This document shows positions 61,879 through 64,000 of a stretch of DNA of 64,000 nucleotides, piece after piece. The translations under genes and the position numbers were made by a program. How positions within the stretch are numbered: the first letter of the stretch is position 1; every line of letters starts with the position of its first letter. The notes below the pieces were generated by a model. The model was given only the letters and a program-made list of their open reading frames with translations. It ran no database searches and was not told where the DNA came from. The DNA comes from a virus. Where the stretch lies: IMG/VR virus record IMGVR_UViG_3300033153_006411, positions 1 through 64,000 of that record; one strand, given 5' to 3'.

Positions 61879-61907
61879 TTGACAGTTATTTTTAAGTGTG
61901 ATACGTT
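61879..61907 (+). promoter_or_regulatory. Sigma70 promoter driving the guide array and tas operon
   Basis: TTGACA-N17-TACGTT with TG extension, 17 nt upstream of array unit 1. Confidence 0.7.
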
Positions 61908-61923
61908 TAAGCCTATGAATCAT

Positions 61924-62357
61924 GATGTGGGTGGAAGACCAGCCCGATACCGTCGGTTGACCTTTCAATTGCAGTCACCGCCCGCATCAACTTATTACGG
62001 TAGCTTGGAAGACCGATGGCGCACAGTCGTTTAGACCCTTCGATCAATGTCACCAAGCCGCCAATTTATCAGAGGTAGTTGGAAGACCTGAAAATTTTTG
62101 TCGCGTGACCCTCTCGTGAATGTCACCAACTACCTCAACTTATTACGATGCGTGCGAAAGACCTCGTAAACCAAGTTGTATGACCAATGGCAAATAGTCA
62201 TCGCTTGCATCAATTTATTACGGTAGCTCGGAAGACCAGTGTTGTAGTGTCGAATGACCTCTTCAAGATCGTCACCGAGCTATCAACTTATTAAGGTAGT
62301 TGGAAGACCCTATTGGTGTAGTCAAATGACCGGATACGTTTAGTCGCCGACTACCTT
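61924..62357 (+). repeat. TIGR-like stem-loop guide array 1 (6 units, ~74-nt period, two 11-nt spacers per unit)
   Basis: Unit = stem-AA-GACC-N11-GTC-N4/5-GACC-N11-GTC-R-stem'-AA(C/T)TTAT linker. First GACC at 61937, 62011, 62085, 62160, 62234 and 62306. Confidence 0.9.
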
Positions 62358-62427
62358 TACCAAATCGGCACGTGCTGATAAGCCGGTGGACTAATCCACC
62401 ATCATATTGTTCATTGGGAACAGGAGT

Positions 62428-63033
62428 ATGAAGATGGAAAACAATACAATCACGACCGTCAATGATCTCATCCGCATCGCGGATGATAATCATCCCACAG
62501 ACACCAATGCCGCTGTAGCTGCTGTCATCAAAGCGATGAAGAAACACAAGCAAAAAGATGACATGCAGGAGTTGCTTATCTCCGCAGGAATCAAGTTGCT
62601 TCTGAACGGCATTCGTTCCGAGAACAAATTCAAACCCTCACCTGTTGACGGGGTCACCACATTCGAGAGCCATAAAAACAAGTCCGACACCAAAGGCCAC
62701 AGCACCATCCGCCGTGCCACTCTTAAAACCACAGAACAGCGTGAAGGTACACGTAATGACATCATCGAGACCATACTCGATGAGGTTTATGGCTCCAACG
62801 GATACCGCATGAGCATCGGAAATGCAACCAAGCCGGTACTCCGCCACTGGGCTAAAATCGAAGGCAAGCAGGCGATTGGTCATACCCGCAACTATGATTT
62901 GTTCACTGCCATCGCAGATAGACTGCCCGATGACACCACCAAGGTTGTTGAGTCACTGGACGCTGACGACGTACTGTCTATCAAGTGTAAGACTCATGCA
63001 GTCGCCAAGGGTGAAACTCATGCAGCCGCGTAG
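62428..63033 (+). CDS. Uncharacterised protein embedded in the TIGR-like locus
   Basis: AGGAG RBS; lies between array 1 and the Nop-like gene and overlaps its start; no recognisable motif. Confidence 0.7.
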   Translation: MKMENNTITTVNDLIRIADDNHPTDTNAAVAAVIKAMKKHKQKDDMQELLISAGIKLLLNGIRSENKFKPSPVDGVTTFESHKNKSDTKGHSTIRRATLKTTEQREGTRNDIIETILDEVYGSNGYRMSIGNATKPVLRHWAKIEGKQAIGHTRNYDLFTAIADRLPDDTTKVVESLDADDVLSIKCKTHAVAKGETHAAA

Positions 63034-63817
63034 CCAAACGGTGGAGACGCTTAAGAAGATGTGTCACTTTCGACGTGTCCATCTTCGACAGCGCAACGCT
63101 CTTGTCCTTTGTATTCAAGGCTTGATACGTTCAGAACTGGGCTTTCGATCCATCGGTCCAAATGATGAAACCGCCACGGAAAAGAAAGCACGGGAAAAGG
63201 TGAACAAGGAAGCCAAGACTCGTGGTGATAGAATTATTTCATCATTGAATGGTAAGAAGCTCGCCAAACCACTAGTCGATATCGACCAGAGCATTTATGA
63301 GTATATGCTCATCAACTGCAAAGGAATACTCGATGGTATCGATATCATGAATTCTGACCTGAAGTCTAAGGACAAGGCCATCGAGAAGAAAGCCAAAGAG
63401 TTGCCAGAGTGTGAATGGTGGACTAGCCATAAGGGTCTGTCAGCTAAAGGTCTTGGTTTGCTAACAGGTGACGCTGGTGATATCGCCCGCTTCGACAAGG
63501 AGTCGCAACTATGGAAGCGCATGGGTATGGCAGTTATCGATGGTAAGCGTCAACGACGTGTGGCTGGCAATGCTGCGAAGGCAATCGAGCATGGATACAA
63601 CTCCGACAATCGCGCCACCATGTTCACCATCGTGTCCAGTCTCAACATGGAACGCAACAAGGAATGCTACGCTGACCATCCGTGGTTCAACCTAGCTCGT
63701 GATTACAAGGAACGTAAACTGGCTGAAGGTGATAGACCATGCATTGCCGAAGCACGCGCCAACCGTAGAATGGGAAAGCGAATACTCCGTGATCTCTACT
63801 TGCAGGTACATGCATGA
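63020..63817 (+). CDS. Nop/IS110-like RNA-binding protein lacking a nuclease domain (TasA-like)
   Basis: Coiled-coil N-terminal half, then 'KGLS...LG.L.GDAGDIARFDKESQLWKRMGMAVIDGKRQRR...GYN...R' and 'A.RRMGKR.LRDL' resembling the IS110 Transposase_20/Nop fold. No DEDD RuvC domain, no catalytic SG, flanked by arrays. Start reassigned to ATG 63020. Confidence 0.8.
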   Translation: MQPRSQTVETLKKMCHFRRVHLRQRNALVLCIQGLIRSELGFRSIGPNDETATEKKAREKVNKEAKTRGDRIISSLNGKKLAKPLVDIDQSIYEYMLINCKGILDGIDIMNSDLKSKDKAIEKKAKELPECEWWTSHKGLSAKGLGLLTGDAGDIARFDKESQLWKRMGMAVIDGKRQRRVAGNAAKAIEHGYNSDNRATMFTIVSSLNMERNKECYADHPWFNLARDYKERKLAEGDRPCIAEARANRRMGKRILRDLYLQVHA

Positions 63818-63825
63818 AGTAACCT

Positions 63826-64000
63826 GATGCGAGAGGAAGACCTATCTCGACTAGTCGTATGACCGTCCAGCCGCCGTCACCTCTCGCGTCAATTTATTCC
63901 GGTAGCACGGAAGACCAATCGATAAATGTCGAATGACCTTGTGAACTTTGTCGCCGAGCTACCAATTTACCCGATGACTTGGAAGACCCGTAGAGCATAG
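63826..64000 (+). repeat. TIGR-like stem-loop guide array 2 (2 full units + 1 cut by the window edge)
   Basis: Same unit grammar; first GACC at 63839, 63913 and 63985. Confidence 0.9.

Follow-up and report, generated by a model that had tools for sequence, protein, structure and literature searches.

A phage locus that is very probably a stem-loop TIGR-Tas system with a nuclease-less TasA protein and a conserved partner gene

The DNA analysed here, referred to below as the window, comprises positions 1 to 64,000 of IMG/VR virus record IMGVR_UViG_3300033153_006411 and is the first 64 kb of one 83,134-bp phage contig. Towards its right-hand end, and continuing past it, lies a locus that we assign with high confidence to the stem-loop TIGR-Tas systems, as a phage-borne member of the TasA (nuclease-less) type. 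All elements of the locus are on the plus strand, in the order promoter candidate, six stem-loop units, a partner gene, tasA and four further units (Table 1). A preliminary description of the window had called the locus TIGR-Tas-like and TasA-type, and every testable part of that proposal (the fold, the lack of a nuclease, the layout of the units and the arrays flanking the gene) held. It is not a new class, since both stem-loop TIGR arrays with TasA and the action of TasA as an RNA-guided repressor have already been published (2025–2026); the newer aspects lie in a conserved, unnamed partner gene and in hairpin scaffolds that stay unchanged while their guide pairs are swapped.

The units follow the grammar stem(10–12 nt)-AA-GACC-N11-GT(C/T)-N4/5-GACC-N11-GTC-(R)-stem′ and are joined by linkers with the consensus CAAYTTAYY. 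The regular expression GACC-N11-GT[CT]-N3–6-GACC-N11-GTC identifies eight complete units within the window, each of them on the plus strand and inside 61937–63952; the whole contig holds ten, six upstream and four downstream of the genes. Run over both strands of the 64-kb window, a covariance model derived from the ten units picks up no further unit. The grammar given in the preliminary description is in the sequence as stated, by regular expression and covariance model alike, and the six upstream units and all 17 spacers quoted there are correct. The 'at least three more units' reported downstream are present as well, their exact number being four, with the last ending at contig position 64111.

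The structure proposed for the unit, an outer stem, a closing GAC:GUC helix and an inner GUC-tetraloop-GAC helix, was scored on the ten-unit alignment. It accounts for pairing in 98.2% of cells, with compensatory double changes in 10 of the 11 variable stem pairs (27 cells), and the six GAC/GUC pairs are essentially invariant across the units. None of 500 shuffles matches the observed pairing and covariation, and when the partner columns are slid by 1–3 positions pairing falls to 25–43%. The RNA structure of the units is thus under selection. Eight G·U pairs on the plus strand become C·A mismatches on the other strand, which favours plus-strand transcription. The fold corresponds to the figure-eight that has been described for tigRNA guides, in which each of two loops carries one spacer. 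In six independent loci (L082, L083, L020, L053, L007/8 and L070) units built on this grammar point the same way as tas, and their presence in more distant viral loci implies a reach of the grammar well outside the close clade. When 80 viral loci were scanned for generic hairpin chains, the scan proved too permissive to use. At L020 2650–2798 and L053 2327–2934 one or two GACC-N11-GTC units lie either in the space separating the partner gene from tasA or immediately ahead of tasA.

The composition of the spacers was examined on 63 distinct sequences from this locus and four relatives. Positions 1–10 hold almost no information, while at position 11 A or T accounts for 56 of the 63 and G for one. 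Because of this restriction at position 11 the free spacer is taken to be 10 nt, followed by a W-GUC motif. The earlier statement that the spacers are exactly 11 nt is right for the N11 of the grammar, of which the freely variable part is 10 nt and the last position W; the specificity of about 22 nt per guide that was deduced from it is revised to nearer 20 nt. By their positions, W-GUC may be the counterpart of the 'UG' box D of the solved Tas complexes and GAC-C that of their 'CCA' or 'CUU' box C.

The 265-aa product of tasA matches solved TasR (9MTY, chain 9mty_A) over the Nop domain in phmmer (E 2.8e-6) and the NCBIfam model NF052498 (TIGR_Tas_endo, 'TIGR-Tas system RNA-guided endonuclease') with an E-value of 2.5e-13. 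The family is large; an exhaustive search returned 1668 cluster representatives at E ≤ 1e-3 and 739 at E ≤ 1e-10. An AlphaFold (AF2) model built from 26 homologues (predicted local distance difference test, pLDDT, 95.5) is almost all helical and has a coiled coil (residues ~4–125) followed by a Nop C-terminal domain (~131–264), the last helix (240–264) stopping one residue before the end of the 265-residue chain. Foldseek ranks TasR, TasH and IS621/ISCro4 ahead of Prp31 and Nop5 for this model. The VIA-align comparison gives the same picture: TasR [Z 16.3, root-mean-square deviation 2.4 Å, 184 residues, TasR chain 111–295 (after the RuvC domain)], TasH [Z 15.4, TasH chain 65–279 (after the nuclease domain)], IS621 (Z 13.0, IS621 residues ~122–312), then Nop and Prp31 (Z 7–9). 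The protein is identified as TasA because the matched ranges start past the nuclease domains of TasR and TasH and because the chain ends one residue after its last helix. As modelled, it consists of a coiled coil and a Nop domain and has neither a nuclease nor a long C-terminal processing loop; stem-loop clades characteristically lack the extended C-terminal Y/H tigRNA-processing loop (10.64898/2026.09.09.750476). The Nop/IS110-like fold suggested in the preliminary description is therefore borne out by both sequence and structure comparison, and so is the lack of RuvC and HNH, in keeping with the starting points of the alignments, the nearly all-helical model and a Pfam search without a nuclease.

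The start of tasA can be placed in two ways. The junction where the partner gene ends and tasA starts is covered by a 24-nt tandem duplication at 62982–63029 (copies 83% identical), which creates two possible tasA starts, 62996 and 63020. The alternative at 62996 yields 273 aa, as called for the relatives P0001 and P0002; relatives are called from either start (273 or 267 aa).

Stem-loop TIGR arrays with TasA, their 8–12-nt dual spacers and RNA-seq of unit-length processing were reported in the founding paper (Faure et al. 2025, PMC12045711 section 9), and 2,559 stem-loop arrays have been catalogued (Xu et al. 2026, 10.64898/2026.09.09.750476). TasA ribonucleoproteins (RNPs) bind target DNA and reversibly repress transcription under the control of the guide (10.64898/2026.09.09.750476), and the structure of PlTasA with a stem-loop guide has been solved by cryo-electron microscopy (Guan et al. 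2026, 10.64898/2026.08.11.744272). The protein described here has the same solo coiled coil and Nop domain, with no nuclease, as PlTasA (from a Peromyscus leucopus gut contig), BlTasA (B. longum) and MbTasA (Minisyncoccota). The locus shares with stem-loop TIGR-TasA systems the hairpin units, the two short spacers between box-C/box-D-like motifs, the variable but paired stems, the sub-arrays on both sides of the gene, the lack of a long C-terminal Y/H loop and the viral setting. It differs from them in that its box motifs, GACC and (W)GUC, pair as two 3-bp GAC:GUC helices and leave a free spacer of 10 nt plus W, and in that it is operonic with a conserved 199-aa partner. The dual-repeat proteins TaTasR (PDB: 9MTY) and SpTasH (PDB: 9W04) are the best matches to the coiled coil and Nop domain, and tandem-spacer guide logic is common to all. 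However, the RuvC or HNH nucleases that cut DNA and the 36-nt guides with fixed edge and loop repeats belong to TasR and TasH only, and guide processing by a C-terminal Y/H loop to TasH only (10.64898/2026.09.09.750476); all of these are absent here. The IS110/IS621 bridge-RNA recombinases and the archaeal and eukaryotic box C/D RNPs (Nop5, Nop56/58, Prp31) have the same Nop-type fold and two target-pairing guide segments, whereas the present locus has no DEDD recombinase domain and has arrays instead of a single bridge RNA. In this company the locus adds no new principle but is an unusually clean natural example: it lies on an 83-kb phage contig, has ten guides and can be set beside L082, a very close relative. 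Systems of the TIGR-Tas kind are compact, bind DNA under RNA guidance, do without a protospacer-adjacent motif and currently attract interest as tools; the literature states their natural targets, guide acquisition and partners as open questions.

Both of the overlapping genes proposed in the preliminary description are present, with an overlap of 14 nt. The upstream one encodes the 199-aa partner, modelled (pLDDT 79) as an N-terminal three-helix domain, a disordered linker (~66–99) and a C-terminal helical domain. A word search finds two close homologues, and a family profile built from weak tblastn leads finds the family far more widely. Counting only loci with enough upstream sequence (68 viral, 52 metagenome), the family is encoded immediately upstream of tas and on the same strand in 55 of the viral and 43 of the metagenome loci (98/120), where the gene typically overlaps or abuts tas. 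The most conserved stretch reads roughly FPLPGGKRLGDATR...QAxDMxxKARWL, and the N-terminal three-helix domain of the relatives has a weak UBA-like signature. Searches for a family or fold in Pfam, NCBIfam, PHROGs, a PDB profile search, Foldseek and the ESM Atlas returned nothing usable, and a wide VIA-align search for structural neighbours gave a best Z of 5.1, with none convincing. According to the founding paper, TasA is without clear protein associations apart from TasParB (PMC12045711). TasParB-TasA operons (Faure et al. 2025, fig. S14) likewise have a second gene operonic with tasA and arrays upstream, downstream or between. TasParB is ParB-like, has a DGFHR motif and goes with dual-repeat arrays; in contrast, the DGxHR motif is absent from all 31 members of the partner family and no ParB family is among their Pfam matches, even at E ≤ 5, which rules out that the partner is the published TasParB. 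No description of the family was found in the published TIGR-Tas literature, as far as accessible. A gene present in about four-fifths of related TasA loci is a lead in its own right, and its product probably acts with TasA in some way.

One form such action might take is that TasA serves mainly as a guide-directed platform and the 199-aa partner is the effector, with an outcome beyond steric repression. The conserved position directly upstream of tas on the same strand, often with overlap, speaks for this, as do the guide units that sit between the two genes in L020 and the two folded domains joined by a flexible linker. However, the searches with the partner turned up no catalytic motif and no known fold or family, other TasA proteins repress alone in E. 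coli (10.64898/2026.09.09.750476), and gene neighbourhood by itself is no proof of binding. We consider an effector role possible but rather doubtful.

The second lead is the swapping of spacer pairs inside near-identical stems. The JGI contig L082 encodes a TasA that is 94% identical and has six upstream and nine downstream units, compared with four downstream units here. Syntenic units were compared between the two loci (window 61921–62361 and 63823–64000; L082 1284–1723 and 3176–3840). U2, U6, U9 and U10 are nearly the same in both, in spacers (20–21/22 identical positions) as in stems (20–24/24), and U4 is intermediate (spacers 14/22, stem 20/24). In U5, U7 and U8 the stems are kept (22–23/24) and spacer identity is 4–6/22, with about 5.5 expected by chance; U1 and U3 differ in both spacers (5–8/22) and stems (10–17/24). 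The spacer pair of U8 is located in upstream unit 5 of L082, that is, in the other array. The unit-by-unit identities and the relocation of U8 show that a spacer pair is exchanged or relocated as one block, with the conserved box motifs as its borders; GGAAGACC, GTCGAATGACC and GTCACC are the motifs at unit boundaries. As to how this happens, one guess would be gene conversion or template switching at 6–11-nt conserved motifs, or between a few stem types. In L083 (53% protein identity) the grammar is the same and all spacers are different. Taken with the partner gene, this leads to a tentative proposal, which we hold to be somewhat less likely than not: the 199-aa protein may define an undescribed two-protein phage TIGR-TasA subtype, as a cofactor or effector at guided sites or for guide maturation or loading, in which arrays diversify by exchange of spacer-pair cassettes between hairpin scaffolds. 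If true, cassette exchange would offer a first handle on how TIGR arrays gain guides.

The promoter candidate consists of a −35 element TTGACA (61879–84), a 17-nt spacer and an extended −10 element TGaTACGTT (61899–61907; TACGTT 61902–07). The −10 matches at three of six positions, and for this reason a consensus scan missed it. L082 retains TTGAC and TGnTACGTT but has 7 changes among the 17 bases that separate them, and this conservation of the elements across a diverged spacer makes the promoter plausible. The sigma-70 promoter named in the preliminary description is thus to be qualified: its −10 hexamer is a weak match, though conserved in the relative. A scan found no terminator between the arrays and the genes, so that a single transcript is the simplest reading. 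Two short matches in the leader were considered and rejected. At 61859–61885 there is an inverted match to a linker, GACC and the first 10 nt of U9 spacer A, which was considered as an auto-target or unit remnant; 61859–69, complementary to the C of box C and U9 spacer A, is not conserved in L082, and the match is probably due to chance or is the scar of a recent rearrangement. The other match is that of 61900–09 to U6 spacer B. For both, matches of 10–11 nt are expected by chance in 2.2 kb.

The published cut pattern of TasR, with 8-nt 3′ overhangs, implies that the target reads spacer A and then the reverse complement of spacer B, and targets were sought on this basis outside the contig, with exact patterns for a few pairs (U7, U10 and U2). 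The 22-mer of U7 has no match in the viral contig collection, and U10 has none in prokaryotic genome contigs or in viral contigs. U2 has 41 matches in prokaryotic genome contigs, spread over unrelated GC-rich taxa and all gap lengths and none with the expected AA centre, and these are read as background. For self-targets, every spacer pair was compared with the 83-kb contig, taking all tandem orientations, allowing gaps of 0–8 and using 9–11 nt per spacer; the best scores equal those of shuffled spacers, and the spacers of L082 and L083 likewise give nothing above shuffled on this contig. Paired matches to spacers A and B in genomes, which the preliminary description had looked to as a check, therefore yielded no target.

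Several observations weigh against the assignment to TIGR-Tas or against a working system. The 265-aa protein has no match in Pfam, and thus none to a nuclease, to DEDD_Tnp_IS110 or to Transposase_20, and its NF052498 score (50.5 bits) is below the curated equivalog cut-off of 100. The CUU motif reported at processing sites, at the base of the stem, is present in about half of the linkers, with UUU in the rest. The promoter scan made no call, the −10 element being weak; no terminator was found after the downstream array. No RNA run is among the public runs that hold the locus, and as the scans made gave no target for any spacer pair its biological role is putative. Four DNA runs, from vent and sediment metagenomes, carry pieces identical to the locus, and hence no population variation was obtained.

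By analogy with published TasA work on transcription, processing, dimer binding, DNA targeting and repression, the locus would operate as follows. Transcription probably runs rightward from TTGACA/TGaTACGTT through the six units, the partner gene, tasA and the four units on one transcript. Each unit folds into a 10–12-bp outer stem closed by the GAC:GUC helix, and the second GUC-tetraloop-GAC helix splits the interior into two loops, each displaying a 10-nt free spacer and then A/U. The conserved CAAYUUAYY linkers would be where the precursor is cut, and a host RNase probably does so. Two TasA molecules, dimerised via the coiled coil, would bind each guide through the box-C/box-D-like motifs, and the two spacers would pair with opposite strands of a DNA site of ~20 bp which, by the published TasR geometry, would consist of spacer A and, after it, spacer B in reverse complement. 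Lacking a nuclease, the complex would stay on the DNA and block transcription or replication of a target in the host or a rival element, and the partner protein probably works with TasA in some manner. The programmable, non-cutting DNA binder with a possible part in gene repression that had been proposed for the window is the behaviour since demonstrated for other TasA proteins (10.64898/2026.09.09.750476).

A rival reading is an RNP directed at RNA. TasA and its guide would then bind host or phage transcripts, as box C/D sRNPs do rRNA and tRNA, and alter their translation, stability or modification; the Nop fold and two-guide architecture are indeed common to box C/D RNPs, which pair with RNA (PMC12045711 discussion), and the scans made identified no DNA target. 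However, published TasR is inactive on RNA substrates with spacer matches, TasA RNPs bound target double-stranded DNA, and Pfam searches found nothing resembling fibrillarin or L7Ae in the operon, which makes RNA targeting very improbable. Least credible of all is that the protein is the leftover RNA-binding half of a recombinase in a decayed IS110-family element and the hairpins degenerate bridge-RNA-like or terminal repeats without guide function: weak matches to PHROG 'transposase' families and to the IS110 model NF033542, and the structural neighbours IS621 and ISCro4 at Z 13, point that way, but the protein lacks a DEDD/RuvC domain, its NF033542 score is 28.5 bits where the cut-off is 140, TasR and TasH outscore IS110 proteins in both sequence and structure, the protein family is large (739 representatives at the stricter threshold), and ten intact covarying units with invariant GAC/GUC, in a grammar kept down to the 53% protein identity of L083, indicate selection on the RNAs.

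Table 1. Features of the TIGR-Tas locus. Positions are those of the window and, beyond 64000, of the contig.
Feature	Position	Strand	Basis
Promoter candidate, sigma-70-type	61879..61907	+	Read from sequence; putative function
Upstream stem-loop TIGR array, 6 units	61921..62361	+	Regular expression, RNA folds, alignment, covariation, covariance-model scores 62–72 bits
U1	61921–61992	+	Covariance model
U2	61996–62066	+	Covariance model
U3	62069–62140	+	Covariance model
U4	62144–62215	+	Covariance model
U5	62219–62288	+	Covariance model
U6	62290–62361	+	Covariance model
Partner gene, 199 aa	62434..63033	+	Open reading frame; family upstream of tas in related loci
tasA, 265 aa	63020..63817	+	phmmer, NCBIfam, AF2 model, Foldseek, VIA-align
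Downstream stem-loop TIGR array, 4 units	63823..64000 in window, on to contig 64111	+	Whole contig, covariance-model matches on L081
U7	63823–63894	+	
U8	63898–63967	+	
U9	63970–64038	+	With U10, crosses window edge; same contig
U10	64042–64111	+	With U9, runs past window edge; same contig

The public runs that hold the contig are hydrothermal-vent and sediment metagenomes. No close relative of the phage by DNA was found in the phage collection, and a protein-level search returned one distant Rhizobium phage match. The rest of the contig contains phage-type genes, two tRNA-Leu genes and a permuted tmRNA. The tRNA-Leu genes (anticodons CAA and GAG; 61612–61788, minus strand) adjoin the array upstream and are divergent from it. 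The tmRNA, of the permuted (two-piece) type, lies at 37606–37807 (Rfam RF04321, 101 bits), with no report by ARAGORN. Just past the window, a 147-aa HD_4/HD-domain protein is encoded on the minus strand at contig positions 64111–64554 (L081 3111–3554) and converges on the downstream array; it has a SpoT-like HDVxED motif and, judged by its sequence, may be a small alarmone hydrolase.

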